From Thermoplasmatales archaeon (GTDB lineage: Archaea > Thermoplasmatota > JASEFT01 > JAUWIS01): 36,757 nucleotides of DNA. Made by a program: the position numbers and the translations under genes. The notes below the pieces were generated by a model. It was not told where the DNA came from. It was given only the letters and a program-made list of their open reading frames with translations, and made no database searches. Of the stretch, positions 14,865-30,487 are shown piece by piece. How positions within the stretch are numbered: the stretch's first letter is position 1; every line of letters starts with the position of its first letter. The stretch is from assembly GCA_030019485.1 (NCBI GenBank), contig JASEEW010000001.1:1-36757 (forward strand), in the 5' to 3' direction.

Positions 14865-15020
14865 GCCCTTTCTTTCTCTTTACAAGAGAAAGAAAGCGAC
14901 TGGCGGAAAGAAAGAGAAAACAGCCAACTCTCAGTTGGCTTAGGCGGTTGCTTCGCAACCGCCAATCTCTTCTTTTTTCGCCAGCGTTTTTCTTTTCTCT
15001 AAGAGAGAAAAGAAAAAGGC
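14865..15020. repeat. Composite ~155-bp palindrome containing four perfect stem-loops
   Basis: H1: CTTTCTTTCTCTT-tac-AAGAGAAAGAAAG (14868-14896). H2: AGCCAACT-ctc-AGTTGGCT (14922-14940). H3: GGCGGTTGC-ttc-GCAACCGCC (14943-14963). H4: TTTTTCTTTTCTCT-aag-AGAGAAAAGAAAAA (14987-15017). The outer parts are also mutually complementary (CGACTGGCG 14897-14905 with CGCCAGCG 14979-14986). Confidence 0.75.
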
Positions 15021-15024
15021 TGTG

Positions 15025-15354: not shown

Positions 15355-15369
15355 TTTTTTCACCCCCAC

Positions 15370-15476
15370 ACTCAGTAGTTAGGGGAGAGCAGTTAGAAGT
15401 TAGGGAACATCTGACTCCTAACTCCTGATCCCTAACTCCTTGCCTTAACCCTTGATCCCTAACTACTCCCATTTTT
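15370..15476 (-). repeat. Intercistronic TTAGGG-unit hairpin element, copy 1 (pycA stop to cupin start)
   Basis: Plus strand: GTAGTTAGGGG..AGTTAGAAGTTAGGGA..TCCTAACTCCTGATCCCTAACTCC..GATCCCTAACTAC. The outer 10-bp arms GTAGTTAGGG/CCCTAACTAC and inner AGTTAGG/CCTAACT arms are complementary. Confidence 0.7.
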
Positions 15477-16922
15477 TCACCCCTGACTTGCAGAAATATA
15501 TGCCTGAACGCCAGCCATAGCAGCTGCTATTTTCGGCGCTGAACTCTGAGCTTTTTGCGCCTTCACATATTCAACAACCTGGTCAAGAATCTTATATTTT
15601 GGTATGAAGCTTGTGTTGTATTCACCTTTTACCCACTGGGAATGATTCATTACAACGGTATGGAATGGTATGTTGTTGCGTACACCCCCAATCTGAAACT
15701 CCCATAATGCCCTTTTTGTCCTTGCTATAGCCCTAGATCTGTCCTCTGCCCAGATAATCAACTTAGCAATCATTGAATCATAGAATGGTGGGATGATGAA
15801 GCCCTGGTAAACACCTGAGTCTATTCTAACACCAGGACCAGATGGCTCTGCATACCTTATGATTTTGCCTGGCGCAGGCATAAAATTGTTTAATGGGTCC
15901 TCAGCATTGATCCTGCATTCTACGGCATGCCCTCTGGGTTTTATGTCCTCTTGCTCATACTCAAGCTCCAGTCCTGATGCAACCCTGAGCTGCTCCCTTG
16001 CCAGGTCAATGCCTGTGATTGCTTCTGTTATAGGATGCTCAACCTGAAGACGCGTGTTCATCTCCAGAAAATAATATTTTCCATCCTTGAACATGAACTC
16101 ACATGTGCCGGCATTGTAATATTTTGCTGTTTTTGCTACCAGAACAGCCTGCTTTCCCATTTCTTCCCTGAGTTCTGGTGTGAGGGCACAGGAGGGTGTT
16201 TCCTCAATCAGTTTCTGATGCCTACGTTGAACACTGCATTCCCTCTCACATACATGAATAAGATGCCCGTGCTTGTCACCTATAACCTGGAACTCTATAT
16301 GACGTGGGTCTTTAATGAATTTCTCTATAAAAACAGCATCATCCCCAAATGAGTTCTTTGCCAGACGTCTTATACTCTCTAAAGTTGTATTCATCTTCTC
16401 ATCAGAGTCAACCATCTGAATACCTATTCCCCCGCCTCCGGCGGAAGCTTTAAGCATGATGGGGTAACCAATCTCATTTGCTATCTCCTTTGCCCTCTCA
16501 TGGTCAGATATAGCCTCTGTCACACCCGGCACGACATGAACGCCTGCTTCTATCATGGATTTTTTTGAGTCAATTTTTGAGCCCATGAGCTCCATTGCCC
16601 CCACAGGAGGACCAATGAATTCTATCCCGTTTTCTTTACACAACTTAGCAAAGTCGGCGTTCTCAGCCATGAAACCATAACCAGGATGTATGCCTTCCGC
16701 ATTGCATTTTAATGCCACGTCTATGATTTTTTCTTTGTTGAGATAACTCTGGGATGCCGGTCCAGGACCTATGTTGTATTTCTCATCAGCATATTTCACA
16801 AACAATGCGTTTTTGTCAGCATCAGAATAAACAGCCACAGTTGCTATACCAAGCTCCTTGCATGCCCTTATTATTCTTACAGCAATTTCTCCCCTGTTTG
16901 CAATTAGCACCTTGTTAAGCAA
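15477..16922 (-). CDS. pycA: Biotin carboxylase subunit (pyruvate carboxylase subunit A type; could equally be a 2-oxoglutarate carboxylase small subunit)
   Basis: 481 aa. KVLIANRGEIAVRIIRA, the ATP-grasp glycine loop KASAGGGGIGIQ, and EMNTRLQVEHPITE. TTG start at 16922 directly abuts the pycB TAG stop, with GGTGAT 6 nt upstream. Confidence 0.85.
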   Translation of the reverse strand: MLNKVLIANRGEIAVRIIRACKELGIATVAVYSDADKNALFVKYADEKYNIGPGPASQSYLNKEKIIDVALKCNAEGIHPGYGFMAENADFAKLCKENGIEFIGPPVGAMELMGSKIDSKKSMIEAGVHVVPGVTEAISDHERAKEIANEIGYPIMLKASAGGGGIGIQMVDSDEKMNTTLESIRRLAKNSFGDDAVFIEKFIKDPRHIEFQVIGDKHGHLIHVCERECSVQRRHQKLIEETPSCALTPELREEMGKQAVLVAKTAKYYNAGTCEFMFKDGKYYFLEMNTRLQVEHPITEAITGIDLAREQLRVASGLELEYEQEDIKPRGHAVECRINAEDPLNNFMPAPGKIIRYAEPSGPGVRIDSGVYQGFIIPPFYDSMIAKLIIWAEDRSRAIARTKRALWEFQIGGVRNNIPFHTVVMNHSQWVKGEYNTSFIPKYKILDQVVEYVKAQKAQSSAPKIAAAMAGVQAYISASQG

Positions 16923-18722
16923 CTACATCACCTGCATAAGCACATCACCTGGCTGGACAGAATCCCCTTCTTTAACAAATATCTCCTTTACTTCACCTTC
17001 CAGATCAGATGTTAACTCCTGCTCCATTTTCATGGCCTCAATAGTCAGGATAACATCCCCTTTCTTGACTTTGTCGCCTTTTTTCACCTTGAGTTTCATT
17101 ATTATTCCCTGCATAGATGATTTAACACCACCTTCAATTTCCTTTGGTTTCACTGCAGGTGCTGCACTGGGAACAGCAAAACCAGTTGGTGTAACCTTGA
17201 CCTCGTACGCCTCACCATCAACCTCGACACTGAATTCTATGGGTATGGATGCAGGCTTCCTTGCCTCAGGAGGCTCAGTTTCAATCCATATCTGTTTATG
17301 CTCAGGGAAGTATTTATTCACCATGGCCCTTGTTAAAGGATGATTGAACGGCAATGGTAATTGCTCAGAGGTAAACTCCGGGTTTGCCTCGCCTTTCAGA
17401 AACTTTAACCCTACCTGGGGGTAAATAGCATAGGTTATAACATCCTCTGGTTTTTTCACCAGTCCCATTTTCTCAAGCTCGTCCTTTCTTTTTTTATACA
17501 TTGGCTCAAGTAAATCAGATGGCCTGCATTCTATTATTTCATCCTTCCATTTTGGTCCTAGTATTGTTTTGTATATTTCCTTTGATATCTCACCAGGTGG
17601 CTTGCCGTACATTCCTTTCACATAGTCCTTTGTTTCCTTTGGGATTTTTTTGTATCTGCCGAAAAGAACATTCATCACTGCCTGAACACCAACAACCTGG
17701 GATGTGGGGGTAACAAGTGGAGGATAACCTAAATCCTTTCTGACCCTTGGCGTCTCTGCAAGAACCTCATTGTATTTATCTGCTGCACCCTGCTGCTCCA
17801 ACTGAAAAACCAGATTTGATAGCATCCCGCCTGGTATTTGATGAACAGTAACAGATGGGTCAACCTTCAACGCCGTTTGCCTGTGCAGATGCCTGTACTT
17901 GTCCCATATCTTCAAAAAATATTCCCTGCATTCCATAAGCAAATTCATGTCATAACTAGTGTCATACTCTGTTCCTTTTAATGCTGCTACAACAGATTCT
18001 GTTGCGGGCTGACCGGTGCCGCCGGAGATGGGTGAGATAGCAGTATCAAGTATGTCAACACCTGCCTCGCATGCCCTCATGTAAGCCATACCTGTCATTC
18101 CTGATGTGCAATGACTGTGTAAATCAATCGGTATTTTTATCCCTGCGTCCTTACATTCCTTTATTATGTCATAAGCCATTTTTGGTGAAATCATCCCTGC
18201 CATATCCTTAATACACAGTGAATCACAGCCCATTTTTTCCAGTTTTCTGAAATCATCAACATATCTTTCAACAGTGTGAACAGGAGAGATGGTGTAGCAC
18301 AATGAGCCCTGGGCATGACCGCCGACCTCTTTAACTGCCTCAATAGGAACCTTCATGTTCCTTAAATCATTCAATGCATCAAAAACCCTGAAATAATCAC
18401 ATCCGTCTTTTTTTGCGTAATAAATAAATTTTTTTACTATATCATCAGGGAAATTCCAGTATGCAACAATGTTCATTGCGCGCTCAAGCATCTGCAGAGG
18501 CGTGTTTGGAAGGGCAGATTTCATTTTTTTCAATCTTTCCCAGGGGTCCTCATTCAGGTATCTTATTGGAACATCAAATGTTGCACCACCCCAAACCTCA
18601 AAAGAAAAAAAACCTATTTTGTCTATGACAGGGCATATTGGAAGCATGTCCTCTGTCCTCATCCGCGTTGCAAGTATTGACTGATGCGCATCCCTAAATA
18701 TCTGCTCATGTAGTTGTACCAT
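16923..18722 (-). CDS. pycB: Carboxyltransferase + biotin-carrier subunit (pyruvate carboxylase subunit B / oxaloacetate decarboxylase alpha family)
   Basis: 599 aa. FRDAHQSILATRMRT (TIM-barrel carboxyltransferase), HCTSGM, and a C-terminal biotinyl domain with the IEAMKME biotinylation motif. Confidence 0.85.
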   Translation of the reverse strand: MVQLHEQIFRDAHQSILATRMRTEDMLPICPVIDKIGFFSFEVWGGATFDVPIRYLNEDPWERLKKMKSALPNTPLQMLERAMNIVAYWNFPDDIVKKFIYYAKKDGCDYFRVFDALNDLRNMKVPIEAVKEVGGHAQGSLCYTISPVHTVERYVDDFRKLEKMGCDSLCIKDMAGMISPKMAYDIIKECKDAGIKIPIDLHSHCTSGMTGMAYMRACEAGVDILDTAISPISGGTGQPATESVVAALKGTEYDTSYDMNLLMECREYFLKIWDKYRHLHRQTALKVDPSVTVHQIPGGMLSNLVFQLEQQGAADKYNEVLAETPRVRKDLGYPPLVTPTSQVVGVQAVMNVLFGRYKKIPKETKDYVKGMYGKPPGEISKEIYKTILGPKWKDEIIECRPSDLLEPMYKKRKDELEKMGLVKKPEDVITYAIYPQVGLKFLKGEANPEFTSEQLPLPFNHPLTRAMVNKYFPEHKQIWIETEPPEARKPASIPIEFSVEVDGEAYEVKVTPTGFAVPSAAPAVKPKEIEGGVKSSMQGIIMKLKVKKGDKVKKGDVILTIEAMKMEQELTSDLEGEVKEIFVKEGDSVQPGDVLMQVM

Positions 18723-18771
18723 TTTTTTTCACCTTTAAGGATGGGTATTACGTTGGATGTTTAAAAATGTT

Positions 18772-19257
18772 TCATTCTTTCTTTTTTAGTTTTAATCTTG
18801 TATATGGAAGCAGACCGCCTGCATCCCTGATAGCAAGAACTTCTTTTGGAAGTGCTGGAAAAGAAAAATTTTGTTCTCCGACCATGATACTTCCTTTTTC
18901 AATGTTTAGTTGAACTTCATCACCTTCTGAATAAGTTTTCACTGCCTCCGGGCATTCTATAAGAACAAGACCCTGATTAATTGCGGCTCTGTAAAATATC
19001 CGCGCAAAACTTTCAGCTACTATCGCTTGAACACCAACGGATTTAAAACCCAGAACTGGCTGCTCTCGCGAGCTGCCGCATCCAAAATTTTTCCCAGCAA
19101 AAATAACATCACCAGTTTTTACATTATCCGCAAATGATGGATCCAAATCCTCAAGGAGATGTGGTTTAATTTCCTCAGGCGTGGCGCATGTATATGTGTA
19201 TTTTCCTGGGAAAAGCTGGTCAGTGTTTATGTTGTCGCCATACTTCCATATTCTCAT
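18772..19257 (-). CDS. Aconitase-superfamily dehydratase small subunit (LeuD/HacB-like swivel domain)
   Basis: 161 aa. WKYGDNINTDQLFPGKY and GKNFGCGSSREQ. The ATGA overlap with the large subunit stop suggests translational coupling. Confidence 0.85.
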   Translation of the reverse strand: MRIWKYGDNINTDQLFPGKYTYTCATPEEIKPHLLEDLDPSFADNVKTGDVIFAGKNFGCGSSREQPVLGFKSVGVQAIVAESFARIFYRAAINQGLVLIECPEAVKTYSEGDEVQLNIEKGSIMVGEQNFSFPALPKEVLAIRDAGGLLPYTRLKLKKKE

Positions 19258-20513
19258 TTTCTCACCGTCCTTGGGTCAGTAATTTCACCATGAATGGCTG
19301 ATGCTGCAACAGTTGCGGGTGATGCAAGATAGATTTCTGCTTCTTTGCATCCCATTCTCCCCTTAAAATTTCTGTTTGCTGTGCTGAGGCATCTTTCCCC
19401 TGGTGCTAATACCCCTTGATGCGCACCCAAACATGGCCCGCAACCAGAGGGGAGTATTATTGCTCCGGCATTGCTCAAAATCTCAATATTCCCATTTCTC
19501 AAACAGTTTTCAAAAACGGTTTTTGATGCAGGAAGTATGAGCAGTCTAACATGGGGTGAAACTTTTTTTCCCTTTAAAATCCCAGCCGCAATTTCAAGGT
19601 CTTTTTCTCTTCCATTTGTGCAGGTTCCAATGAGACATTGGTTTATTTCAATCCCAGCAACTTCGGAGACAGATTTTACATTGTCCACATTGTGCGGGCA
19701 GGCAATCACTGGTTGAATTTTTGAAACATCGTATGTGAGTTCACTATGATACACAGCATCAGGGTCAGCCCATACAGGCTCATAATCCTTTACACCTGTT
19801 TTTTTCAGGTACTCAACAGTTATATCATCAACCGGGAAAACAGCGTTTTTTGCACCTGCTTCCACGCCCATGTTGGCAATGGTGAACCTGTCGCCAACAG
19901 AAAACTGTTCCATGTCGCCATGGAATTCAACAGAGCAGTAGTTCGCGCCTGAAGAACCAATATCACCTATAATATGAAGTATAACGTCTTTTGCTGAAAC
20001 CCGGTTGTTTAGTTTTCCTTTCAAATTTATCTTGATGCTTAAAGGCACCTTGAGCCATGTCTCACCTGTTAGCAGAAGGGAAGCAGCCTCAGTCCTGTCT
20101 ATCCCTGTTGAAAAAGAGTTAACAGCGCCATATGAGCAGGTGTGCGAATCACTCCCAAGTATTAAACTTCCAGGAACAGCGAAACCTTTTTCCAGAACAA
20201 TCTGATGACATACGCCTGTGCCTGCATCAAAAAAATTTTTGAGTTTGTGTTTTTTCACGAACTCCCTGATTTTTTTATGGTTAGATGCTGTTTTCTCGTC
20301 TGCCGCAGGTATTACATGGTCCAACACGATAACAGGTAGATTTTTGTCAACAATTCCATATTTTTCTATTTCATCTGAGATTTTTCCTATAATGGCTGCT
20401 GCATTATCATGCATTAAAAGATGCTCTGGTTTAACAGTGACAATCTGCCCTGGGACAGCATCCTTCAAGCCTGCCTTTTTAGCAAGAATTTTTTCAGCAA
20501 ACGTTTTCCCCAT
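19254..20513 (-). CDS. Aconitase-superfamily dehydratase large subunit (LeuC/HacA-like), canonical active site
   Basis: MHDNAA, VLDHVIPA, GVCHQIVLE, GSDSHT, ANMGVEAGA, GTCTNGR, GCGPCLG, NRNFKGRMG. I prefer the start at ATG 20513 (MGKTFAEKIL), which follows AGGTGA. The listed start at 20588 overlaps the upstream gene. Confidence 0.85.
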   Translation of the reverse strand: MGKTFAEKILAKKAGLKDAVPGQIVTVKPEHLLMHDNAAAIIGKISDEIEKYGIVDKNLPVIVLDHVIPAADEKTASNHKKIREFVKKHKLKNFFDAGTGVCHQIVLEKGFAVPGSLILGSDSHTCSYGAVNSFSTGIDRTEAASLLLTGETWLKVPLSIKINLKGKLNNRVSAKDVILHIIGDIGSSGANYCSVEFHGDMEQFSVGDRFTIANMGVEAGAKNAVFPVDDITVEYLKKTGVKDYEPVWADPDAVYHSELTYDVSKIQPVIACPHNVDNVKSVSEVAGIEINQCLIGTCTNGREKDLEIAAGILKGKKVSPHVRLLILPASKTVFENCLRNGNIEILSNAGAIILPSGCGPCLGAHQGVLAPGERCLSTANRNFKGRMGCKEAEIYLASPATVAASAIHGEITDPRTVRK

Positions 20514-20518
20514 AATAC

Positions 20519-22267
20519 TCACCTTTTTAGAAGACCCCCTCTTTGATAAATTTTCATCTGAATCTCTGAAAAAGGACTGCCTTTGCATCTTTCATTTTTT
20601 GAGCAGTTTTCCACATTTCCTGTGGAGAAATCCACTTTGACCTCATCCCCATTTTTTATAAGAGACACTGCATTATCCAGTGTTATTATTGGCATGCCAG
20701 AGTTGATGGCATTTCTTTCATAGATTGAGCCGAATGATTCAGCAATTATAACAGAAACACCAAGGCTTTTGAAGCAGTCCACTGCCTGCTGCCTGGAGCT
20801 GCCGCATCCAAAGTTTTTTCCAGCAACAACAATGTCGCCTTTTTTCACTTTTTCTGCAAACATCTCCCACCCCTCTAGGTTCTCAAATGCATGCTTCCCC
20901 ATCTGCTCTATATCAGTTATTGAAAGGTATTTGTTATGGAATATCATGTCTGTATCAATGTTGTCCTTCTTGATTACCCACGCCCTTCCTTGAGCAGCAG
21001 TTGGTTTTTTCTGTATTTCTTTCTCTTTCTGGATAGATAGAGTCTCTGGTAAAACGGTTTTAAAAAGAACAGGCGTTGATGGAATATCATCCCTGGTTGT
21101 GATAACACCTGCAACAGCTGACGATGCTACTGTCTCAGGTGAAGCAAGATACATGCTGCCTTTACCCTGCTTCCCAGCAAAATTTCTGTTCCCGGTACTC
21201 ACTGTGATTTCACCTGGACCGTTTTGTCCAATCTGCCCTGCGGCGCATCCTGCACATCCCGGGTTGCCAATCAGCGCCCCTGCCTTTGTGAATATATCAA
21301 TGATTCCTTCATCAAGGCATTTTTTCCATACATCATGGGTGGATGGAACAATTTTCAGCACAACACCAGGAGCAACCTTTTTATTTTTCAGAATTTTTGC
21401 TGCAGCAGCCATATCCTCAAATCTACCGTTTGTGCAGCTGCCTATAAAGCAGGAGTCAATCTTTGTTCCTTTTACCTCTGATACAGGGACAACATCCTCA
21501 GGATGACCGGGGCGTGATATCATAGGCTCAAGTTCATTTATGTCAATTTTCACAATTTTTTTGTATTCTGCATCAGGGTCAGCAAGGACAGGTTCGGTTG
21601 GGAAAAAAATTATAATTGCTCCCATTTCTGTTGCCATGGAAGAAATCGTTATCCTGCCTGAAAGCCCCAAACTGTCTAAACCATAAATTTCTGCTGCGCA
21701 TCCTAAAAGACCGCTTGCGCCAAACTCTTTGAGGATTGCAAGGACGAGGTCTTTGGGTGTTGCGTTTTTACCAGGTAATCCTTTTAAAACTATTTTAACC
21801 GTGGGTGGAACCTTAAACCAGATTTTTCCAAATGCAAACGCGTGCGCAACATCAACATCACCCATCCCCTGACCAAAAGCCCCTATTGCTCCGACTATGT
21901 TTGCGTGCGAGTCCGTGGAGATTAGTGTTCCCCCAGGAGATATTAGTCCTTTGTCTATGGATAGGTGTGTGCCAATGCCTTGAGTGATATCATACACCAT
22001 GATACCATTCTCTCTTGCAAACATTCGGCATAACTGTTGGTTTGCAGCATACTTCTGATCAGAGCCTGTTGGATTGCAGTCAAAAGTAAAAAAAGTCTTA
22101 CCTGGGTCATCAATGCCAAGAGCGTTTTCCCTGAGGTTTTTCACAACATTTGCTCCTCCGAAATCCCTAGCAAGGCGCGCATCAATACCCAAATCAACAA
22201 TATCCCCTAGGCTTACTGGGTGTCCGCAGTGCTTCTCAATAATTTTTTCAATAATTGTTTTTCCCAT
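20519..22267 (-). CDS. Fused large+small-subunit aconitase-superfamily protein with non-canonical active-site residues; substrate unknown
   Basis: 582 aa. The N-terminal ~400 aa is LeuC-like (STDSHAN, GSCTNGR, GCAGCAAG, NRNFAGKQG). A ~30-aa linker follows. The C-terminal ~150 aa is LeuD-like (DNIDTDMIFHNKY, GKNFGCGSSRQQ). GGAGGAG lies before the ATG. Confidence 0.75.
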   Translation of the reverse strand: MGKTIIEKIIEKHCGHPVSLGDIVDLGIDARLARDFGGANVVKNLRENALGIDDPGKTFFTFDCNPTGSDQKYAANQQLCRMFARENGIMVYDITQGIGTHLSIDKGLISPGGTLISTDSHANIVGAIGAFGQGMGDVDVAHAFAFGKIWFKVPPTVKIVLKGLPGKNATPKDLVLAILKEFGASGLLGCAAEIYGLDSLGLSGRITISSMATEMGAIIIFFPTEPVLADPDAEYKKIVKIDINELEPMISRPGHPEDVVPVSEVKGTKIDSCFIGSCTNGRFEDMAAAAKILKNKKVAPGVVLKIVPSTHDVWKKCLDEGIIDIFTKAGALIGNPGCAGCAAGQIGQNGPGEITVSTGNRNFAGKQGKGSMYLASPETVASSAVAGVITTRDDIPSTPVLFKTVLPETLSIQKEKEIQKKPTAAQGRAWVIKKDNIDTDMIFHNKYLSITDIEQMGKHAFENLEGWEMFAEKVKKGDIVVAGKNFGCGSSRQQAVDCFKSLGVSVIIAESFGSIYERNAINSGMPIITLDNAVSLIKNGDEVKVDFSTGNVENCSKNERCKGSPFSEIQMKIYQRGGLLKR

Positions 22268-22357
22268 TTACTCCTCCACCCTAGTAGCTAGGGGTTAGGG
22301 GGATTGTTTTCCTTTTTTCCCCTAATCCCTAATCCCTGATCCCTAACTACTTTCATC
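22268..22357 (-). repeat. Intercistronic TTAGGG-unit hairpin element, copy 2 (HD-gene stop to fused-dehydratase start)
   Basis: GTAGCTAGGGGTTAGGGGG (22284-22302) faces CCCCTAATCCCTAATCCCTGATCCCTAACTAC (22319-22350). The arms GTAGCTAGGG/CCCTAACTAC pair 9 of 10. Confidence 0.7.
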
Positions 22358-22948
22358 CTACTCCTCCAGAATTAGTTCTCCTTTCTGAAGCATTACAAGT
22401 GGGTTAAATGTGCTGAAATCAGCCTGGTGTATGAGTACGGTTTCTACAGTTTGGGGTCTGCCTTCACCTTCCTTGGCATGGCATGCAACAATATTCACAA
22501 TCTCATCTGGAAGACCAGACTCTGCTACCAGGATTGCGCCTGAGATAGGATGGCGCGCGCACCTCCCGCTCCTGCTTTTCCTGTACCCTCCTTTATTATC
22601 AGGCGTTATCTCAAGGAGTTTGCCGACATCATGAAGGAGACCGCCAGCAATCAGTCTGTCAAAATTTATTTTATACGGCGGTTCAGCGTAGTTTTTCGTT
22701 TGGGCTTTGCCTAGACCAAGCGCACCCTCGGTAACCGCGATGGTATGCTCTATGAGGTTGATGTCTCTGGAATCTGTGAGGAGTGTAAAAGGAATATTTT
22801 TTAGCTCCTCCACTGTTTTCCATCCTCCGCGTTCGCATGCCTTAACCCATACATTCACAACCTTTTTTCTTAGTTCGCTATCTGAAATCTTGGAAAGCAA
22901 TTCTTCAAACAGTTCTTCAATATCCTTTTCCTTTATCATATTCACCAC
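22358..22948 (-). CDS. HD-domain metal-dependent phosphohydrolase family protein
   Basis: 196 aa. IEHTIAV (His) and GGLLHDVGK (HD motif), with later HAKEG and HQAD. The GTG start at 22948 is 1 nt after the upstream stop. An alternative ATG lies at 22939. Confidence 0.75.
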   Translation of the reverse strand: MVNMIKEKDIEELFEELLSKISDSELRKKVVNVWVKACERGGWKTVEELKNIPFTLLTDSRDINLIEHTIAVTEGALGLGKAQTKNYAEPPYKINFDRLIAGGLLHDVGKLLEITPDNKGGYRKSRSGRCARHPISGAILVAESGLPDEIVNIVACHAKEGEGRPQTVETVLIHQADFSTFNPLVMLQKGELILEE

Positions 22949-22949
22949 T

Positions 22950-24143
22950 TCATTCCATTTTTGAGATTACCGCATCTGTCATTTCCTTAGTGCTTGCTGC
23001 ACCCTGGTCAAAAACCTTTTCACTTCCAGGGAGCCTCAGCATATCATATGTCCTAACTTTCCCTTCCTCTATAACATCTGCAACTGCTTTTTTTATCCTC
23101 TCTGCTTTTTCTATCTCCCCAAGATGCTCAAGCATCATACAGGCAGATAAAATCATGGCCATTGGGTTAACAATTGATGGTTTTAAATTCGCATATTTTG
23201 GTGCTGAGCCATGTGTTGGCTCAAAGATTGCACAATCTTTTCCAATATTGGCGCTACAAGCAAAGCCGAGACCTCCAACAAGACCTGCGAAACCATCAGA
23301 GACAATATCACCAAACATGTTTCCTGCGACAATAACGCCGTAGTCCTCAGGGTTCTTTGTAAGCCACATCATCTGCGCATCTATGTTTGTGAACCAGAGT
23401 TTAATATCAGGAAAATCAGTGGATATTTTTTTTGCTTCCTCCATCATCATGCCTGAGGTTTCCCTTATCACATTTGGCTTCTCACATATTGTCACGCTTT
23501 TGTATTTGAATTTTTTTGCATAGAGAAACGCCTCCCTGATTATTCTACTGCATGCAGGTCTTGTGAAGATTCTTGTAGAAATCGCCAAGTCCTTTCCAGG
23601 CACATCTTTGAATTTTTTCATTTTTGGATGCGTTTCCAAAGCTGAACGCACATTTTCAGGAGGGTTCGTCCACTCAACACCAGAGTAAAGTCCTTCAGTG
23701 TTCTGCCTGAACACAACAACATCAACAGATGGTTCTTCAAAACTGTTTCCTTTTCTTCTGATAAAGTTCAAAGGGTTTCCTTTGAATGACCTGCATGGTC
23801 TGATGCATATATCAAGGTCAAAATGCTGCCTGAGACCAACTATTGGACTGTAATACACATAACCTTTTCCCTGAAGACCCGGCGATAACTCCTTGGCAGC
23901 CTGGTCCTTTGGCTTTGATGTAATTGCACCAAAAAGACCAATTCTGTGCTTTTCAAGAAGCTCAATTGTGCGCTGGGGTAACGCATTCCCTTCTTTAACC
24001 CAGCATCCCCATCCAATATCTGCGTTTATGTAATTTGCCTCAAAACCAGCAGCATCAAGAACCCTGAGTGCTTCTGAAAAAACGATTTTTCCAATCCCGT
24101 CACCAGGCATGGTTACAATGTTTTTTTTTCCCATGTTAATCAT
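22950..24143 (-). CDS. Isocitrate/isopropylmalate dehydrogenase-family beta-decarboxylating dehydrogenase, non-ICDH-like substrate loop
   Basis: 397 aa. TMPGDGIGK, LFGAITSKP, YSPIVGLRQHFDLDICIRPCR, FRQNTEGLY, GDIVSD. The position matching E. coli ICDH Asn115 is Ile. Confidence 0.8.
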   Translation of the reverse strand: MINMGKKNIVTMPGDGIGKIVFSEALRVLDAAGFEANYINADIGWGCWVKEGNALPQRTIELLEKHRIGLFGAITSKPKDQAAKELSPGLQGKGYVYYSPIVGLRQHFDLDICIRPCRSFKGNPLNFIRRKGNSFEEPSVDVVVFRQNTEGLYSGVEWTNPPENVRSALETHPKMKKFKDVPGKDLAISTRIFTRPACSRIIREAFLYAKKFKYKSVTICEKPNVIRETSGMMMEEAKKISTDFPDIKLWFTNIDAQMMWLTKNPEDYGVIVAGNMFGDIVSDGFAGLVGGLGFACSANIGKDCAIFEPTHGSAPKYANLKPSIVNPMAMILSACMMLEHLGEIEKAERIKKAVADVIEEGKVRTYDMLRLPGSEKVFDQGAASTKEMTDAVISKME

Positions 24144-24147
24144 TCTT

Positions 24148-25341
24148 TCATTTTTTGTAACTTGACCATTTTTCTTCCAGCTTTGGGTCCTTTAGTGTCT
24201 CAATTATGTATTTCGCCATCTCAGCCCCTGTGGCACCGTCTGCCCTGCCTGTGCAGCCTATTTTTTTCTCATATACTGTGCATATATCAAGCGCCTTTCC
24301 CAGTTTTTCTGCTTTCTCAGTAAACCCTATGTGTTTGAGTAACATAACTGTTGCTCTTATAACACTTGATGGGTCTGCATACTGTGCTCTTCCTTCCTGA
24401 ACCATTCTTGGCGCAGTACCATGGATTGCCTCAAACATAGCATATCTTTTGCCAATGTTAGCACTTCCAGCAGTACCTACACCACCCTGAAACTCTGCAG
24501 CTTCATCTGTGATTATATCCCCATAAAGGTTTGGGAGAACAACCACCTTGAATTCAGTTCTTCTTTTAGGATCAACAAGTTTTGCTGCCATTATATCAAT
24601 AAACCAGTCATCCCATTTTACGTTTGGATAATTTTTTGCTATTCTTCCAGCTGTGGATAAAAACTTTCCATCTGTGGTTTTCACAACATTAGCCTTTGTA
24701 ACAACTGTGACCCTGTTAATGCTGTTTTTACTGGCGTAATCAAATGCAAGCCTGATAATTCTTTCTGAGCCCTGAGTCGTTATGGATTTAAAATCAATTG
24801 CGAGATCATCAGTAACATTTATACCATGCTTACCAAGTATGTATTCCCCCTCTGTGTTTTCCCTGAAAAACACCCAGTCTATGCCTTCTTCCGGTACCCT
24901 GACAGGTCTGACATTTGCGAAAAGGTCAAGATCCCTCCTCATGGCAACATTTGCGCTTTCAATATTGGGCCAGGGGTCACCTTTTTTAGGTGTTGTGCAG
25001 GGACCTTTGAGCAGCACATGACATTTTTTTATTTCTTCCAATACATCATCAGGTATTGCCTTCATAACCTTTACCCTGTTCTCAATTGTAAGACCCTCAA
25101 TGGTTTTAAACCTGACCCTGCCCTTCCTGGCTTCTTCCTCCAGTAGATACTCAAGGATTTTCTGCGCCTCCTTAGTAATGTAGGGACCTATGCCGTCACC
25201 GCCAACTATGCCTATAACAATGGGTTTAAGTGTTTTGTAATCAACCCATTCCTCAGCCTTTTTCATTTTTTCTACTCTTTCTAATTCCCTTTTAACTATC
25301 CTGCCAAAATGCTCCTTTGCTTTTTCTACTGCCTCGTTCAT
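24148..25341 (-). CDS. icd: Isocitrate dehydrogenase-like (prokaryotic homodimeric type)
   Basis: ~397 aa. GGDGIGPYI, LLKGPCTTP, ESANVAMRRDLDLFANVRPVR (S-x-N as in E. coli S113/N115), FRENTEGEY, LYGDIITDEAA. I prefer ATG 25341, which follows GGGGTGA. The listed start at 25350 is a GTG. Confidence 0.8.
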   Translation of the reverse strand: MNEAVEKAKEHFGRIVKRELERVEKMKKAEEWVDYKTLKPIVIGIVGGDGIGPYITKEAQKILEYLLEEEARKGRVRFKTIEGLTIENRVKVMKAIPDDVLEEIKKCHVLLKGPCTTPKKGDPWPNIESANVAMRRDLDLFANVRPVRVPEEGIDWVFFRENTEGEYILGKHGINVTDDLAIDFKSITTQGSERIIRLAFDYASKNSINRVTVVTKANVVKTTDGKFLSTAGRIAKNYPNVKWDDWFIDIMAAKLVDPKRRTEFKVVVLPNLYGDIITDEAAEFQGGVGTAGSANIGKRYAMFEAIHGTAPRMVQEGRAQYADPSSVIRATVMLLKHIGFTEKAEKLGKALDICTVYEKKIGCTGRADGATGAEMAKYIIETLKDPKLEEKWSSYKK

Positions 25342-25350
25342 ATTCTTCAC

Positions 25351-25442
25351 CCCACACTTAGAAGTTAGCAGTTAGAAGTTAGAAGTTAGAATTCAGGGAA
25401 CTCTGACCCCTAACCCCATGACCCCTAACTCCTGATCCCTAA
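25351..25442 (-). repeat. Intercistronic TTAGGG-unit hairpin element, copy 3 (aclA stop to icd start)
   Basis: The plus-strand left arm holds tandem AGTTAGAA/AGTTAGCA units (25362-25390). The right arm is CCCCTAACCCCATGACCCCTAACTCCTGATCCCTAACTAC. The last CTA is the aclA stop codon. Confidence 0.7.
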
Positions 25443-27287
25443 CTACTGACTACTCGTTAAGTAGCATATGTCATCCCATGGGTGCCTGTAAAGCCCCTGT
25501 TTCAACCTCTTTTGGTCAAGATAATGACCCATGAGTCCAATGCTTCTGCCTAAGACAAACAACCCATTAAGCGCACCCATTGAAACATACTCGTCAGCCT
25601 CCTCCCTTGTGAATTTTCCACAGCTCCTGAGAAGGTCCACAAAACAGATGCCTATGCAGCCATCCACATTCAGAATGAGATTGTTTTTCTTCTTTGTTGT
25701 GAGCTTTTCAACCTCAAGCGCATAGTCCAGCAGAGGTGTTGCCTTGAAATGCTTTTTAACATAATCCTTTATTAAGGTCACCCTCATATCAGGGTTCTGC
25801 ACGCTCTTCACCCTGTGACCTATCCCCTGGATGTTCACACCTTTTTTCTTTTGCTCATCCACAAACTGTGAGGGTGTAAGCCCTCTGTCGTATGCTGAGG
25901 AGAACATCTGAGCTGCCCCATCTATTGCCCCCCCGAACCTTGGTCCAATGGTAAGAAGCCCTGAGACAAGTGAGGATATTAAATCCTTTCCTGCCCTTGC
26001 TGCAACAATGGTGTTATGCGCACCTGATACTGCCGGGCCATGATCAGCTGTGATCTGCAAAACCATTTCAATAAATTTGTGACCATAATCTGGGAGCTGG
26101 CGTTTGAACCAGAGCTGAGATATCACACCACCAGTACCTATATTCCTTTTGAACACATCGGTAATAGAGATGTCGCCGTAATGCAACTCTTCTCCTCTAT
26201 CATCTGAGATTGTGGAAATAAAATTTGTTGGTTTTCTAATCATTCCCATCTTCACTGCCCAAGCGTAATCCATGGGCATCCCTGGTTTTTCAGGCTCTGT
26301 TTTCTCTTTAATAACCCCTTTCTTTACAAGAGCATTATAGGTTTCATTGATTTTTTTATCAAACTCATCAAAAGAGTCTGGTACTATAGCACCTGCTTCT
26401 TTCAATGCCTTATTCTTTGCATCTGCTGTCTCAAGCTCCCCTCCTGCAAGAGCGCCTGCGTGCCCGAACTGAACCTCTGATTTGAACATCTTCGCACATG
26501 TACCTATGCACCAGGCAACCACTGGTTTTTTGATTTTACCACTTTTTATAGCTTCAACAACCTGGTATTCATCTATTCCACCAACCTCACCCAGCAGGAC
26601 AATCATCTTGATTTCAGGGTTTGCCTCATATCTTAGTATATGGTCAATGAATACAGAACCAGGGTATCTGTCACCACCAATTGCAATGCCTTCATAAACA
26701 CCGTCTGTGTTCCTAGCAATGATGTTGTTAAGCTCGTTTGACATGCCGCCTGATTTTGACACGTATGCCACACTGCCGGGTCTGTGCAGTTTGGATTCCA
26801 TGATGTTATCTATCATCCCTCCTGTGTTACCGATTTTGAATGCGCCTGCCTTTAAACCACCAACAGTAGCAGGTCCTATAATCGTTTTTTTTCTTTTTTT
26901 CGCTTCAGCAATAATCTCCTTTGTTCTCCTTTCAGGGATTCCTTCAGCAATGACTGCTACTGTTTTTATGGAATCATAACCCAGTGCCTCCATTGTAGTT
27001 GGGTAGGCTGACCTGAAGGATGCAAAATTAACAACCACATCTGCTTCAGGATGTTTTTTCACTGCATCCTTCAATTCTTTATAAACAGGTACCAGTATTT
27101 CCTTACCGCCGAAAAAGGCTTTATGAAACCCGTCCCTGCCGGAAGGATTAATTATTGCTGCAACAGAAGGTATTTTCCTTCCGCAGACATAATCAAAGTC
27201 AAGCATTCTCTGAACCGCATTCGCCTGCATGCCGTACACGAATGACTGGGTATCAACATCAAACAGGTCATACCATTTTTTTGCCAT
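25443..27287 (-). CDS. aclA: ATP-citrate lyase alpha subunit (CoA-ligase alpha-like domain + citrate-synthase-like lyase domain)
   Basis: 614 aa. [71 protein letters not shown], the phospho-His loop VQFGHAGA, and the C-terminal GIGHRVKS citrate-synthase fold. Confidence 0.92.
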
Positions 27288-27288
27288 C

Positions 27289-28563
27289 TTACTTCCCTCC
27301 TTTTAGGCCCATGGAGGCAATCCTTGTCATATGCGTCTCAGGACCGTAAACCTCAATTGGAACGCCCAGGGTATTCCCTAAGTCCTTCATCATTTTTAAC
27401 CCTGCCTGATAATTTGGTCCTCCCCTTCTGACATATATCTTCACCTTGTTTTCCTGAAGTTTTTCCTTGCTCTCCCTTAAAGCCCTTACTATGCCTTTGA
27501 ATGTATTCGCAACATCAGTGAAGTTTGCTATTCCACCACCAATAAGAAGTATTTTTCCTTTCGGGTTCTTTTCCCTTGTCATCAAATCAAGAACTGTTTT
27601 CGCATACTGATATGTGAACTCCTCACTTGGGTCGCCTGAGTACTCCCCATAGTTGGCAAGCTCTTTGCCAAGCCCTAAATCCGAGATTGTGTCAGCATAT
27701 ATCACAGATGCCCCCCCTCCTGCAACAAGCGTCCACACCCTTCCTTTCGGGTTAAGTACTGTGAGCTTCAGGGATGCCCCTGTTTTAGAATCCAGCTCCT
27801 TGATGTATTCCTCCTCCCTGCTGAAAGTTCTGCCAAACGGCGCAGGGAATTCTATTTCACCCCATTTGCTGCTGCTTTCGAACTCACCTGTGTCATCAAG
27901 TTTCGCAGCCAAATCCAAAGGCACAACCCTGTTTTTTACAACAACAAAAGGGTTTACTTCGAGATACGCGTAGTTCAAATCAGAATAAAAATTGAAAAGC
28001 GCATGAATGAACCCTGCAATTAATTCTTTTCTTTCATCTGGAACATTTCTCAAGATTTTCTTAATCTCTTCCTGGTTTGTTTTTGAGCCCACAGGAACAA
28101 GAAGTTTTTCTGATTTTGTGTCAACATCCCCAACACCCATGCCGCCGTGATGGTAGAAAAGTATTTCGTCCCCATCCCTCAACGACCTTATGCAGGCATA
28201 GTATTCATCCTCTTCTTTATGTGGTATGAACGGCTCAATGATGAAATGCGTCAGCCTGCCAGTAGTATTCTGGACTGTGAGCTCCTTGTTCATTCTTTCT
28301 TTAACCCATTTTTCAGCATCACTGAAAGACGCATTTAAAAGAAGGAGTTTGCTTTTACCCCTTCTTTTAATGAGCTGATCCGGTTTAACCACCAGCTTTT
28401 CTTTTAGAAGCCAGGGGTGTGCCTCACCCAGTTTCTTAAAATCTGTTCCCGGTGTCACCTGAGCAAAACTGTTTTCAATCACATATTTCCCATTAGAATA
28501 CTCTTTTAACAGTCGTGCCATCATCTGCTTTCCATCATACTCCCTAATTGCTCTCTGCGCCAT
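27289..28563 (-). CDS. aclB: ATP-citrate lyase beta subunit (ATP-grasp, SucC-like)
   Basis: 424 aa. [63 protein letters not shown] closely parallels the N-terminus of eukaryotic ACLY as I recall it. GGAGGAG lies before the ATG. The gap to aclA is 1 bp. Confidence 0.92.
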
Positions 28564-28582: not shown

Positions 28583-30487
28583 TTAATTCTGATGCGTTTT
28601 TGTAAATGATAGTAATCCCCCCTCCTTTAGAATGTCTATATCCCTTGGTGTTAACGGATGCGTCGCAGGGACATCAATTTTTTTTGTCAAACTTTTCAAA
28701 GCTATATCCTTCTTGCCGAGGTCTGAAACATCCAGCTCTAAACTGTCCCCGGGATCTATTTTATCATAATCATCCGGGTTTTTCAGCTCCAGCGGCAGAA
28801 TCCCGAAATTAATCAGGTTGGCAAGATGGATTCTGGCAAATGATTTAGCTATCACTGCCTTCACACCGAGATACATTGGGCAAAGCGCTGCATGCTCCCT
28901 TGATGAGCCCTGACCATAGTTGCTTCCGCCGAGAATGAAGCCGCCTTTTTTCTCAAGAGCCCTTGCTGCAAAATTAGGGTCTATGGGCTCAAAAACATGC
29001 TTTGCATACTCAGGAACGTTTGACCTTAGGGGCAGAAGTTTGCCTGCAGGCATGATATGGTCTGTGGTTATGTCATCCCCCACCTTAATGAGCACCTCGC
29101 CTGCGAGTCTGCCAGGCAGTTTTTCCTTCTTTGGCAGAGGCGCTATGTTTGGACCCCTGATAATTTTCACATTCTCAGGTGTTTTTGAAGGATAAATAAT
29201 AAGGGTGTCATCAGGATGGAACACTGTGGGTATTGAGAATTCTGGCGGGGCATGTTTTCTTGGGTCTGTCAGTTTTCCTTCTATTGCGGTTACGGTAGCG
29301 GTTTCCACACTTGTTAAATATACCTGAGCAGATTTTGTTCCTGACCTGCCTTCAAAATTCCTGTTAAATGTTCTGATTGAAACGCCGTTTGTTGGTGGTG
29401 CCTGCCCCTGCCCTATGCAAGGACCGCATGTGCATTCAAGTATCCTGGCACCTGAGGCAATCAGATCTGCCAAAGCACCATTTTTTGCAATCTCATTAAA
29501 CACTGTCCTGGAGCCTGGTGAAATCACAAGTGAAACATTGGGATGCACCTTTTTACCTTTCAAAATCCTGGCTGCAGTCATTAAATCCTTGTAGGATGAG
29601 TTTGTGCAGGAGCCGATAGCAACCTGCTGAATCCCCATGCCTTCCAGTTCTTTTACTGTTACAACATTTCCTGGGCTATGAGGTTTTGCAATCAGCGGCT
29701 CCAACTTTGACAAATCTATTTCTATGGACTCATCATATTCAGCATCAGAATCAGGGACTAGTTCTATCCATTGGGCCTCCCTTCCCTGGGATTTTAAGAA
29801 TGCCTTTGTAATCTTGTCCGAGGGAAATACTGAGCTTGTCGCACCTGTTTCCGCGCCCATGTTTGTAATCGTTGCTCTTTCAGGCACGGAAAGGCTTTTT
29901 ACACCCTCACCACAGTATTCCAGAACCTTGTTCACACCTCCTTTCACCCCTATTCTCCTTAAAACCTCAAGAATCACATCCTTTGCCGCAACCATCTGGG
30001 GAAGTTTTCCTGTTAGCTTCACACCCACAACCTTTGGTTTTTTAAGATAAAATGCTCCTCCTGCCATTGCAATAGCAACATCAAGACCGCCTGCTCCAAT
30101 CGCGAGCGAGCCTGCACCGCCTGCTGTTGATGTATGACTGTCAGAGCCGAGTAACGTTTTACCAGGTCTTGCAAATCTTTCCAGATGAACCTGATGGCAG
30201 ATGCCGTTGCCTGCTTTGGACAATATTATCCCATATTTTGAGGCAACGCTCTGCAGATATAGGTGGTCATCAGGGTTTTTAAAATCTGTTTGAAGGGTGT
30301 TGTGGTCAACATAAGACACTGAAAGTTCTGTTTTCACCTTTGGGATGTCCAGCGCTTCAAACTGTAGATATGCCATTGTGCCTGTTGCATCCTGCGTGAG
30401 TGTTTGATCAATCTTTATGCCAATCTCGTTTTCCCTCCTCTCAACAACATGCTTCTCAAGTATTTTCTCAGCAACATTTTTTCCCAT
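28583..30487 (-). CDS. acn: Aconitate hydratase, ~630-aa single-chain (Aquifex/mitochondrial-like) type
   Basis: All canonical motifs are present: DQTLTQDATG, YVDHNTL, GICHQVHLE, GSDSHT, TNMGAETGA, GSCTNSS, CGPCIGQG, NRNFEGRSG, GQGSSREHAA. Confidence 0.9.
   Translation of the reverse strand: MGKNVAEKILEKHVVERRENEIGIKIDQTLTQDATGTMAYLQFEALDIPKVKTELSVSYVDHNTLQTDFKNPDDHLYLQSVASKYGIILSKAGNGICHQVHLERFARPGKTLLGSDSHTSTAGGAGSLAIGAGGLDVAIAMAGGAFYLKKPKVVGVKLTGKLPQMVAAKDVILEVLRRIGVKGGVNKVLEYCGEGVKSLSVPERATITNMGAETGATSSVFPSDKITKAFLKSQGREAQWIELVPDSDAEYDESIEIDLSKLEPLIAKPHSPGNVVTVKELEGMGIQQVAIGSCTNSSYKDLMTAARILKGKKVHPNVSLVISPGSRTVFNEIAKNGALADLIASGARILECTCGPCIGQGQAPPTNGVSIRTFNRNFEGRSGTKSAQVYLTSVETATVTAIEGKLTDPRKHAPPEFSIPTVFHPDDTLIIYPSKTPENVKIIRGPNIAPLPKKEKLPGRLAGEVLIKVGDDITTDHIMPAGKLLPLRSNVPEYAKHVFEPIDPNFAARALEKKGGFILGGSNYGQGSSREHAALCPMYLGVKAVIAKSFARIHLANLINFGILPLELKNPDDYDKIDPGDSLELDVSDLGKKDIALKSLTKKIDVPATHPLTPRDIDILKEGGLLSFTKTHQN

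Follow-up and report, generated by a model that had tools for sequence, protein, structure and literature searches.

A fused aconitase-family gene in a Thermoplasmatales operon

The stretch of DNA analyzed here, referred to as the window, covers 36,757 nucleotides of contig JASEEW010000001.1 from a Thermoplasmatales archaeon and carries, at positions 20519..22267 of its minus strand, the gene of a fused aconitase-family protein that we name FUS. The gene is a single intact open reading frame (ORF) of 582 amino acids; the original prediction had missed its strand, and the plus-strand translation is riddled with stops. We find that FUS is more than a divergent paralogue: it belongs to a clade of the aconitase superfamily that has gone unstudied and whose active site is remodelled. 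The genes conserved around it suggest that FUS dehydrates a citrate-like acid and so begins a rearrangement that takes two enzymes, in an undescribed pathway. The parts of the gene are as follows.

20519..22267, minus strand: FUS, whole gene (ORF and translation; stop codon 20519-20521; PF00330 and PF00694)
21083..22267, minus strand: residues 1-395, large-subunit-like domains 1-3 with the iron-sulfur site (aligns to the large subunits of M. jannaschii isopropylmalate isomerase and homoaconitase)
20993..21082, minus strand: residues 396-425, flexible linker between the large and small parts (AlphaFold2 pLDDT <50 at 403-420)
20522..20992, minus strand: residues 426-582, small-subunit-like (swivel) domain (GCGSSRQQ and the loop DTDMIFHNKYLSIT; TIGR02087 LEUD_arch)

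Both halves of the protein are readily recognized, with Pfam scores of 253 bits for PF00330 (cutoff 28.7) and 62.3 bits for PF00694 (cutoff 22.8). The AlphaFold2 model (pLDDT 79, pTM 0.70) adopts the closed four-domain aconitase fold, and Foldseek aligned it to pig aconitase with a TMq of 0.80-0.83 and to the M. jannaschii large subunits with a TMt of 0.86. Taken by itself the large part gave a TMt of 0.85-0.86 against 4kp1, 4kp2 and 4nqy and the swivel domain matched 3vba, 2pkp and 1v7l, while the linker has no counterpart in the alignment with the split paralogues. FUS is thus a member of the aconitase superfamily by its domains and fold as well as by its three cysteines and its catalytic serine.

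Kept and replaced residues of the active site

Residue conservation was counted in 120 FUS homologues of 63-100% identity, together with the two paralogues of the window. Residues of FUS are given below in one-letter code and those of pig aconitase in three-letter code.

21245..21436, minus strand: cluster cysteines C278 (21434-21436), C338 (21254-21256) and C341 (21245-21247), invariant in 120/120
20792..20800, minus strand: S490-S491-R492, equivalents of the catalytic base Ser642, Ser643 and Arg644, invariant
22166..22168, minus strand: R34, at the position of aconitase Gln72 and of the LeuC His (Q in the window aconitase, H in LeuC*, the large subunit encoded next to FUS)
22076..22081, minus strand: D63-C64, the aconitase Asp100-His101 pair with His replaced by Cys (fdCn aligned to fdHq/fdHn)
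21638..21640, minus strand: S210 in place of Asn258, 120/120 (tisSma aligned to tmtNma)
21170..21172, minus strand: K366 in place of Arg452, in NRNFAGK, 120/120 (nrnfaGK aligned to nrnfrGR)
21965..21973, minus strand: G99-T100-H101 of the invariant GIGTH, candidate His147 equivalent in a shifted register (HMMER alignments and spacing)

The aligned strings fdHq/fdHn, tmtNma and nrnfrGR belong to the large subunits of M. jannaschii isopropylmalate isomerase (IPMI) and homoaconitase of solved structure, as aligned by HMMER. The original prediction had described a 582-aa fusion of large and small parts that keeps the cluster cysteines and the DSH, and all the motifs it quoted are found in the translation, which contains TFDC, GIGTHL, STDSHAN, SSMATEMGA, GSCTNGR, GCAGC, NRNFAGK, ARD and GCGSSRQ. 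C278 lies in GSCTNGR and C338 and C341 in GCAGC, a three-Cys site with a free fourth iron position, and with this ligand pattern of the superfamily FUS is predicted to hold a [4Fe-4S] cluster. Also kept in the 120 homologues are D119-S120-H121, E214, N360-R361 and S490-S491-R492.

Four members of the full aconitase set (Gln72, His101, His147, Asn258, Arg452, Arg580) are replaced, Gln72 by Arg, His101 by Cys, Asn258 by Ser and Arg452 by Lys, and FUS lacks an Arg580-type arginine in the swivel-domain loop. This loop reads KYLSIT/RYLxIT (FHNKYLSIT in FUS), which is neither the YLVY/ARYLVY of IPMI nor the YLRT of homoaconitase and has Ser/x-Ile at the Arg-Thr positions. R34 is invariant (22/22 rows) and is also Arg in the FUS-clade representatives of the wider search described below. 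C64 is Cys in 118 of the 120 homologues and Thr in the other 2 (P0040 and P0044), and split relatives have Leu or Tyr there; a role of C64 as fourth ligand of the cluster was considered and is ruled out by these exchanges. Further positions that are invariant or nearly so are R34-D35, G97-I-G-T-H101, S-T-D119-S-H-A-N, N360-R361-N362, G365-K366-Q367, G-S490-S-R-Q and the swivel loop D-T-D-M-I-x-H444-N445. The changes that had been noticed by eye, namely VLDH to TFDC, Asn to Ser in SSMATEMGA, NRNFKGR to NRNFAGK and MHD/TQD to ARD, are therefore real, and since each is (near-)invariant in the homologues, they are family signatures under selection and reflect neither chance nor decay.

The one reading of a motif that did not hold was that of GVCHQ to GIGTHL as loss of a histidine. 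H101 of FUS stands 18 residues before the DSH, a spacing equal to that of the window aconitase, and HMMER aligns it with His147 both in pig aconitase (where the hit starts at 101 = 147) and in M. jannaschii homoaconitase. MAFFT and hhalign against LeuC-type sequences, in which the spacing is 19, place T100 and not H101 on the His. Given the aconitase-like spacing, the His147 equivalent is probably kept with its register shifted by one residue.

FUS lies outside the defined enzyme families

FUS scored below the cutoffs of the aconitase models (NF005558, PRK07229, 285.9 vs 612; TIGR01342, 249.9 vs 719), of the IPMI large-subunit models (NF001614, subfamily, 368.9 vs 385; TIGR02083, equivalog, 282.6 vs 610.65) and of the homoaconitase models (TIGR01343, 348.3 vs 385.7; NF040615, 298.5 vs 550; TIGR00139, 230.3 vs 529.9). 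With the small-subunit models it passed TIGR02087, a subfamily model (155.9 vs 108.95), and gave 142.9 vs 245.85 with the equivalog TIGR02084. By these profile scores FUS is outside every defined enzyme family of the superfamily. It is 100% identical to a protein from a metagenome-assembled genome of a Thermoplasmatales archaeon, and the source annotations call it a 3-isopropylmalate dehydratase or a homoaconitate hydratase family protein.

A search of 1.84 billion representatives, scored for the signature, delineated a wider clade that includes split large/small forms and shares the pattern R..D[C/L/Y]..G-x-H..SHxN..S..K. In a rough neighbour-joining tree the FUS clade, with its split relatives, stands apart from all sequences of canonical signature. 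No member of this wider clade reaches an equivalog model or has an informative name, and a cluster look-up of the split relatives returned generic names. Full-text literature searches yielded no paper on the FUS subfamily or its module, and matches to 'novel aconitase' were to AcnX. Three fused sequences of 37-46% identity (P0126, P0129 and P0132) have lost the cluster cysteines and most catalytic residues and are, judging by these losses, probably pseudo-enzyme offshoots of the clade.

FUS relatives were confirmed in at least 573 stretches of species-representative genomes (573 of the 600 matched stretches). The best 80 of these all come from metagenome-assembled genomes, are 59-67% identical to the archaeal query and include members of Thermoplasmatota, Planctomycetota/Phycisphaerae, Gemmatimonadota, Eisenbacteria, Krumholzibacteriota, Zixibacteria, Fermentibacteria, WOR-3, Aminicenantes, Bacteroidales, Cloacimonadota, Neomarinimicrobiota, Delongbacteria, Myxococcales and Fibrobacteraceae. 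A tblastn search of plasmids recovered only ordinary LeuCD, at no more than 38% identity. Identity of 59-67% between archaea and so many bacterial phyla suggests that FUS belongs to a transferred accessory module.

The operon of the window

The operon to which FUS belongs runs on the minus strand and is densely packed, neighbouring genes being -4 to 92 nt apart, in the order aconitase, AclB, AclA, IDH1, IDH2, HD, FUS, LeuC*, LeuD*, pyruvate-carboxylase-B-like subunit, biotin carboxylase (IDH, isocitrate dehydrogenase).

28583..30487, minus strand: canonical aconitase, first operon gene (NF005558, PRK07229, 943 bits vs cutoff 612)
25443..28563, minus strand: ATP-citrate lyase, AclB at 27289-28563 and AclA at 25443-27287 (AclB with citrate-binding domain)
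24148..25350, minus strand: IDH1, isocitrate-dehydrogenase-like, with the canonical S-A-N motif (domain and NCBIfam search, motif)
22950..24143, minus strand: IDH2, isocitrate/homoisocitrate-dehydrogenase-like, with S-P-I for S-x-N (PF00180, motif)
22358..22948, minus strand: HD-domain protein, ~193 aa from the Met at 22939 (PF01966)
19254..20513, minus strand: LeuC*, large subunit of canonical signature (NF001614 546 bits, hacA_fam 527 bits), starting 5 nt past the FUS stop
18772..19257, minus strand: LeuD*, small subunit with the conserved loop NTDQLFPGKYTYTC, overlapping LeuC* by 4 nt
15477..18722, minus strand: biotin carboxylase (15477-16922) and pyruvate-carboxylase-B-like subunit (16923-18722), end of the operon

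FUS is therefore encoded beside a bona fide aconitase, an S-x-N isocitrate dehydrogenase and an ATP-citrate lyase, and this setting, together with its scores below the relevant NCBIfam cutoffs and its own clade, agrees with the earlier view that it is not an ordinary aconitase or IPMI.

The operon region (14000-30500) has a GC content of 40-44% and the flanks one of 33-38%. Immediately before the first gene of the operon, on its upstream side, are the genes of an ISC1217-like DDE transposase (31886-32941) and of a divergently transcribed TrmB-like regulator (30653-31687). The GC contrast, the transposase and the regulator fit acquisition of the operon as an island with a dedicated regulator. 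The carboxylase could act on pyruvate or on 2-oxoglutarate (as in Hydrogenobacter), both being compatible with the sequence. Past the carboxylase genes (14120-18722 region, minus strand) there are a small cupin-like ORF (15025-15369) and a biotin-protein ligase, and the related locus L087 has BioY as well. The flanks (1-12800 and 33909-36707) encode glycosyltransferases, a methyltransferase, a nucleotidyl transferase, a UDP-glucose dehydrogenase, a MiaB-like radical-SAM enzyme and a 932-aa PKD/Ig-repeat protein, and no flank gene is related to the operon.

A conserved module around FUS

Neighbourhoods were compiled from 82 FUS-containing loci and direct-neighbour counts from 70, with co-occurrence judged per locus. 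They reveal a conserved module with the genes arranged as IDH2-HD-FUS-LeuC*-LeuD*, an order shared by Thermoplasmatota, Planctomycetota, Eisenbacteria, Krumholzibacteriota, WOR-3, Myxococcales and other groups. HD is found no more than 8 kb from FUS in 41/82 loci and directly upstream in 27/70, LeuC* is near FUS in 40/82 and directly downstream in 34/70, and IDH2 is near FUS in 19/82. In 10 loci the LeuCD* partner is itself fused (590 aa, canonical signature), and such a fused partner is that of Bacteroidales and Cloacimonadota. Citrate-cleaving genes of several unrelated kinds stand beside FUS in 37/82 loci: ATP-citrate lyase or fusions of succinyl-CoA-synthetase-like and citryl-CoA-lyase proteins (CCS/CCL), a CitD/CitE fusion with CitF, and CitF with a 259-aa citryl-CoA lyase. 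The CitF passes the citF equivalog (508 vs 501), and RipC_Ccl is the second-best match of the CitE-like lyase, at 168 bits. The HD-domain partner, the dedicated LeuCD-like partner and the unusual adjacent dehydrogenase had not been seen in the original prediction.

Some loci are especially informative about what may accompany FUS. There are operons of the type 2-oxoacid:ferredoxin oxidoreductase-IDH2-HD-FUS-LeuC*-LeuD*-CCS/CCL without any other aconitase, while an 88%-identical FUS relative shares its operon with a canonical aconitase and an S-x-N isocitrate dehydrogenase, as in the window. The HD family stays beside relatives of only ~40% identity, with the order HD - FUS-like - CCS/CCL around a 43%-identical relative in L091 and HD - peptidase - split FUS-like in L092. 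In L011 and L054 the operon runs from a PEPCK-like protein through flotillin, a 781-aa aminotransferase and an aromatic-amino-acid/histidine ammonia-lyase to FUS, which is followed by CitD/E, CitF, a long phosphotransacetylase and a radical-SAM protein; this amino-acid fermentation-like setting ends in acetyl-phosphate. Two apparent natural HD-FUS fusions, which would have served as a Rosetta stone, were rejected, the 858-aa ORF in L049 as an ORF-calling artefact of high-GC DNA and P0226 as a frame-shifted gene call.

The HD protein, a family of ~190 aa, is a constant partner of the FUS clade and forms an orphan HD-domain family. A profile search of the PDB gave only YhaM (E = 0.008), a phmmer search with the HD protein found no match, and a single-sequence structure model reached a pLDDT of only 38; Ala or Val replaces the His of the HD doublet in a subset of loci (L004, L070, L071 and L074). 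The LeuC*/LeuD* pair, as its sequences indicate, is a distinct subfamily in its own right: LeuC* sequences from Thermoplasmatota, KSB1, Asgard archaea and bacteria share 70-75% identity, and LeuD* has a conserved loop NTD(M/Q)LFPGKYTYTC ('KYTYT'), unlike the YLVY of IPMI and the YLRT of homoaconitase. A role of LeuCD* as housekeeping IPMI is unsupported, four loci anchored on LeuC* being free of leu genes. The dehydrogenase IDH2 carries an invariant [YF]-S-P-I-V-x-[LM]-R-Q where isocitrate dehydrogenases (IDH1, PDB 6lky) have S-x-N (S113/N115 in E. coli). Asn115 of isocitrate dehydrogenase binds the gamma-carboxylate of isocitrate, and IPMDH-type enzymes have a hydrophobic residue at this position, as does IDH2 with its Ile. 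The best NCBIfam matches of IDH2, all below cutoff, are AksF2 and AksF, the homoisocitrate dehydrogenases of methanogens.

A sister module with a PrpD-family protein

In a reciprocal test we anchored 80 metagenome loci (L093-L172) on the HD family, at 35-68% identity to the HD protein of the window, and found two types. Loci of type I encode HD, a FUS-type protein (fused or split), a LeuCD-type pair, an IDH2-like dehydrogenase and often a lyase. Those of type II encode HD, an MmgE/PrpD-family protein, a fused canonical aconitase-family protein of Lys4 type (~655 aa), an IDH2-like dehydrogenase and often CCS/CCL, and their Lys4-type protein passes the 'homoaconitase' equivalog TIGR00139 (743-775 bits vs 529.9). 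FUS-type proteins occur in 20 of the HD-anchored loci and PrpD-like proteins in 22, with none encoding both (Fisher p ~0.001), and a PrpD-like ORF is absent from all of the loci L001-L092. The hydratase partners sort in the same way, as Lys4-type proteins accompany PrpD in 12 loci and never FUS, and LeuCD-type proteins accompany FUS in 9 and never PrpD. In both types the dehydrogenase carries [YFST]-S-P-I-V and the hydratase partner has a K-x-Y-T-Y loop, which in the Lys4-type protein reads NTDAIYGKDYTYRDD; this shared motif and loop argue for one substrate series. We interpret types I and II as variants of a single pathway module, with FUS and the PrpD-type dehydratase as alternatives for the same step.

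The sister module was seen in L117, L119, L122, L123, L130, L139, L150, L152, L156 and L172 as CCS-beta-like, CCS-alpha/citryl-CoA-lyase fusion, HD, MmgE/PrpD, the ~655-aa protein and the S-P-I dehydrogenase, and no description of this cluster was found. Acyl-CoA dehydrogenase genes adjoin it in L139 and L152, with an ETF-QO-like gene in L139. A further arrangement of the HD gene occurs in L145, L170 and L171, where CitD/E and CitF are followed by a ~490-aa gene on the opposite strand, an IDH2-like gene, HD and then a 637-660-aa gene on the opposite strand, with no aconitase-family or PrpD gene within 5 kb.

Proposed function of FUS

We propose, with a probability that we put at about 0.5, that FUS is an active [4Fe-4S] hydro-lyase of an uncharacterised clade and most likely the first-half dehydratase of a split isomerase in a citrate-lyase-linked module. 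What the sequences show is its clade membership, its signatures, the architecture of the module and the mutual exclusion with the PrpD-like gene; its catalytic competence, its half-reaction and the direction of flux are inferred. The substrate of FUS would be a tertiary hydroxy-tricarboxylate that the neighbouring enzyme of citrate-lyase type makes or cleaves; FUS would dehydrate it to a cis-alkene, LeuC*/LeuD* would rehydrate the alkene to a secondary alcohol and IDH2 would oxidatively decarboxylate that product, or the whole sequence may run in reverse. FUS would then be the iron-sulfur counterpart of the PrpD-family dehydratase of the sister module. In favour of catalysis, the three-Cys site and the Asp-Ser-His, Glu, Asn-Arg and Ser-Ser-Arg residues are all invariant in the 120 homologues, and FUS is encoded with a separate canonical hydratase and a dehydrogenase, as expected of the first enzyme of a split isomerase. 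The neighbourhoods thus favour the earlier suggestion of a dehydratase for a related hydroxy-acid that is co-expressed with the citrate module.

The loss of His101 is not fatal to this idea, since in AcnX the general acid for the leaving hydroxyl is a lysine non-homologous to His101, in a cluster environment that differs from that of aconitase (PMC8184944). In FUS the invariant K366, the shifted H101 and Cys/Thr64 may be considered as candidates for the proton donor. R34 would add a basic residue to the pocket, which fits a tricarboxylate. Which tricarboxylate this may be is a matter for speculation; citrate is one candidate, and a homologue of it, for instance homocitrate, is the likelier one. 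The homologue is favoured because the partner in type II passes the homoaconitase equivalog, because the dehydrogenase is homoisocitrate-dehydrogenase-like and has no Asn115, because two enzymes are needed and because a separate aconitase and S-x-N isocitrate dehydrogenase are present in the operon.

Several points weigh against our proposal. The lyase genes belong to citrate-specific families (the citF equivalog score and the citrate-binding domain of AclB) and no LeuA/NifV-type homocitrate synthase was seen in the module loci, both of which favour plain citrate, for which a split isomerase is not obviously needed. FUS stands beside citrate lyase with no LeuCD* nearby in L011, L054, L091 and 11 Thermoplasmatales loci of the order HD-CitF-CCL-FUS, so it may perform the whole isomerisation alone, and elsewhere LeuCD* is often found by itself, away from any leu genes (four LeuC*-anchored loci). 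The residue comparison leaves protonation of the hydroxyl unexplained, as the general acid His101 is missing and C64 is not strictly conserved. Moreover, neighbourhoods were called with a crude ORF finder and many loci are short.

These same loci raise the alternative that FUS is a complete, if unusual, stand-alone aconitase, that the module is an alternative citrate/2-oxoglutarate branch of the (reductive) tricarboxylic acid cycle in anaerobes and that LeuCD* does something else. FUS next to citrate lyase without LeuCD*, the oxidoreductase-to-CCS/CCL operons without other aconitase, the citrate-specific matches of the lyases and R34, which may be the fourth basic residue expected for a tricarboxylate, all speak for it. 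We nevertheless consider it unlikely, since the clade of the window keeps a canonical aconitase and a canonical isocitrate dehydrogenase in the same operon, IDH2 has no Asn115, and the sister module fills the same slot with two enzymes, a PrpD-like and a Lys4-type protein; in addition, an Arg->Lys exchange cut aconitase activity to 0.4% in the only tested analogue, at a different arginine than in FUS (PMC3556520). It is conceivable, though doubtful, that the substrate is a non-tricarboxylate or a modified hydroxy-acid (citramalate/mesaconate, trans-aconitate, or a phosphorylated acid handled with HD) and that the link to LeuCD* is at the level of the pathway only. In support of this, FUS resembles none of aconitase, IPMI and homoaconitase at the substrate-binding positions, no neighbour is more constant than the HD gene, whose superfamily consists mostly of phosphohydrolases, IDH2 has an IPMDH-like Ile at the Asn115 position, and the CitE-like lyases, with their RipC_Ccl match, include citramalyl-CoA and itaconate-pathway enzymes. 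Such a substrate is hard to reconcile with a CitF that passes the citrate-lyase equivalog, with the citrate-binding domain of the window ATP-citrate lyase and with a sister-module partner that passes the homoaconitase equivalog and so points to a tricarboxylate, and R34 would suggest an extra anionic group and not a methyl.

That FUS is a non-catalytic iron-sulfur protein is very unlikely, whether as a sensor, which the original prediction had put forward as one option, as a regulator or as a pseudo-enzyme subunit that belongs to the LeuCD* enzyme. Such a role could be argued from the loss of the general acid His101, from the changes at Asn258 and Arg452 and from the capacity of the clade to yield pseudo-enzymes, as P0126, P0129 and P0132 have lost the cluster cysteines; against this, the catalytic Ser with its Ser-Arg, the Asp-Ser-His, Glu, Asn-Arg and three Cys are invariant in at least 120 sequences across domains of life, the exchange of C64 for Thr, Leu or Tyr in relatives makes a four-Cys sensor cluster unlikely, and the FUS gene alternates in the module with a genuine enzyme family, PrpD. 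Least probable of all, and hardly credible, is that FUS is the ordinary isopropylmalate isomerase or homoaconitase of the organism for leucine or lysine biosynthesis. The database names say so, and among solved structures FUS comes nearest to M. jannaschii IPMI and homoaconitase (35-36% identity), yet FUS is below all large-subunit cutoffs of both enzymes, its specificity loop is neither YLVY nor YLRT, about 170 related loci contain no leu or lys genes and show no leuA/leuB-type context, and the identity of 59-67% between archaea and bacteria suggests a transferred accessory module.

Returning to the split isomerase, we offer a bolder and tentative extension, in which FUS, HD, LeuCD* and the S-P-I dehydrogenase form an undescribed pathway of 2-oxoacid (de-)homologation built on si-face citrate-lyase-type enzymes, with an altered FUS pocket, a new proton donor and an obligatory HD. 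Citrate-lyase-type (si) lyases would give the opposite 2-substituted-malate enantiomer to that of LeuA/NifV-type synthases, and one may speculate that a dedicated dehydratase is therefore needed. The remodelled pocket (R34, Arg452->Lys, His101->Cys and the swivel His-Asn loop) could, speculatively, bind a substrate unlike that of ordinary members, such as the enantiomer from a si-type lyase; it would be a mirror-image or otherwise altered pocket that dehydrates an enantiomer closed to ordinary aconitase-family isomerases. As an example, acetyl-CoA and 2-oxoglutarate would give (S)-homocitrate, then cis-homoaconitate, homoisocitrate and 2-oxoadipate. Such a pathway would be widespread in uncultured sediment anaerobes, with the PrpD version in samples that bear soil or peat names.

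It is customary to regard the aconitase superfamily as comprising only a few reactions, those of aconitase, IPMI, homoaconitase, AcnD and AcnX. The FUS clade is large and conserved, has a different catalytic set and no studied member, and goes under the database label '3-isopropylmalate dehydratase'. If the split-isomerase proposal is true, the gene is mis-assigned in metabolic reconstructions of many uncultured lineages, among them Thermoplasmatota, Aminicenantes, Cloacimonadota, Planctomycetota and Bacteroidales, and these reconstructions overlook an entire module that connects citrate-lyase-type enzymes with 2-oxoacids. The clade is a natural experiment on the chemistry of the family without His101 and gives a first functional handle on an orphan HD-domain family.

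Comparison with known systems

Closest to FUS are the M. jannaschii IPMI (MJ0499/MJ1277) and homoaconitase (MJ1003/MJ1271), with E ~1e-76 and TMt ~0.86. These enzymes of the archaeal LeuC/LeuD family (TIGR02086, TIGR01343, TIGR02087) share with FUS the domain set, the three-Cys site and the DSH, NRNF and GSSR motifs, whereas FUS is one fused chain, falls below the large-subunit cutoffs, has four residues changed and carries the loop FHNKYLSIT. With pig aconitase FUS shares the closed one-chain four-domain architecture, the cluster ligands and equivalents of Asp100, Asp165-Ser166-His167, Glu262, Asn446-Arg447 and Ser642-Ser643-Arg644, probably of His147 too. Unlike canonical aconitase, FUS is altered at Gln72, His101, Asn258 and Arg452 and is without the Arg580-type Arg, and it is only 31% identical to the aconitase of the window. 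AcnX, which comprises hydroxyproline and phosphomevalonate dehydratases, is a remote match only (Foldseek TM ~0.43, 11% identity); it has other cluster ligands and substrates than FUS and does dehydration only.

AcnD, an iron-sulfur aconitase-type enzyme, can substitute for PrpD. It differs from FUS in that it is AcnA-type, has the canonical residues and needs the isomerase PrpF. The PrpD system offers an analogy to the proposed role of FUS, as a dedicated first-step dehydratase feeds a canonical aconitase-type hydratase and the isomerisation of methylcitrate needs PrpD plus aconitase (PMC3556520). PrpD differs in having no iron-sulfur cluster and an unrelated fold, and the methylcitrate cycle ends in a lyase and not in an IDH-like dehydrogenase.

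The nearest parallel to a split isomerase is the isomerisation of homocitrate in fungi and Thermus, in which aconitase acts first and homoaconitase performs the second half only, and the first-step enzyme of yeast, Aco2p, differs from Aco1p by an active-site Arg->Lys (PMC3556520). By analogy, the FUS module would, like Aco2p and Lys4, use two aconitase-family enzymes in series, dehydration being followed by rehydration, and in both cases the first-step enzyme has an active-site Arg->Lys. Aco2p is unlike FUS in being a mitochondrial-type aconitase that keeps His101 and all other residues, and its exchange is at a different arginine (Aco1p R604). The yeast system also has no HD partner and relies on a LeuA-type homocitrate synthase and not on a citrate-lyase-type enzyme. 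A homoisocitrate-dehydrogenase-like IDH2 together with FUS and LeuCD* would nevertheless follow the same logic as the yeast split, and the sister module even has a Lys4-type protein.

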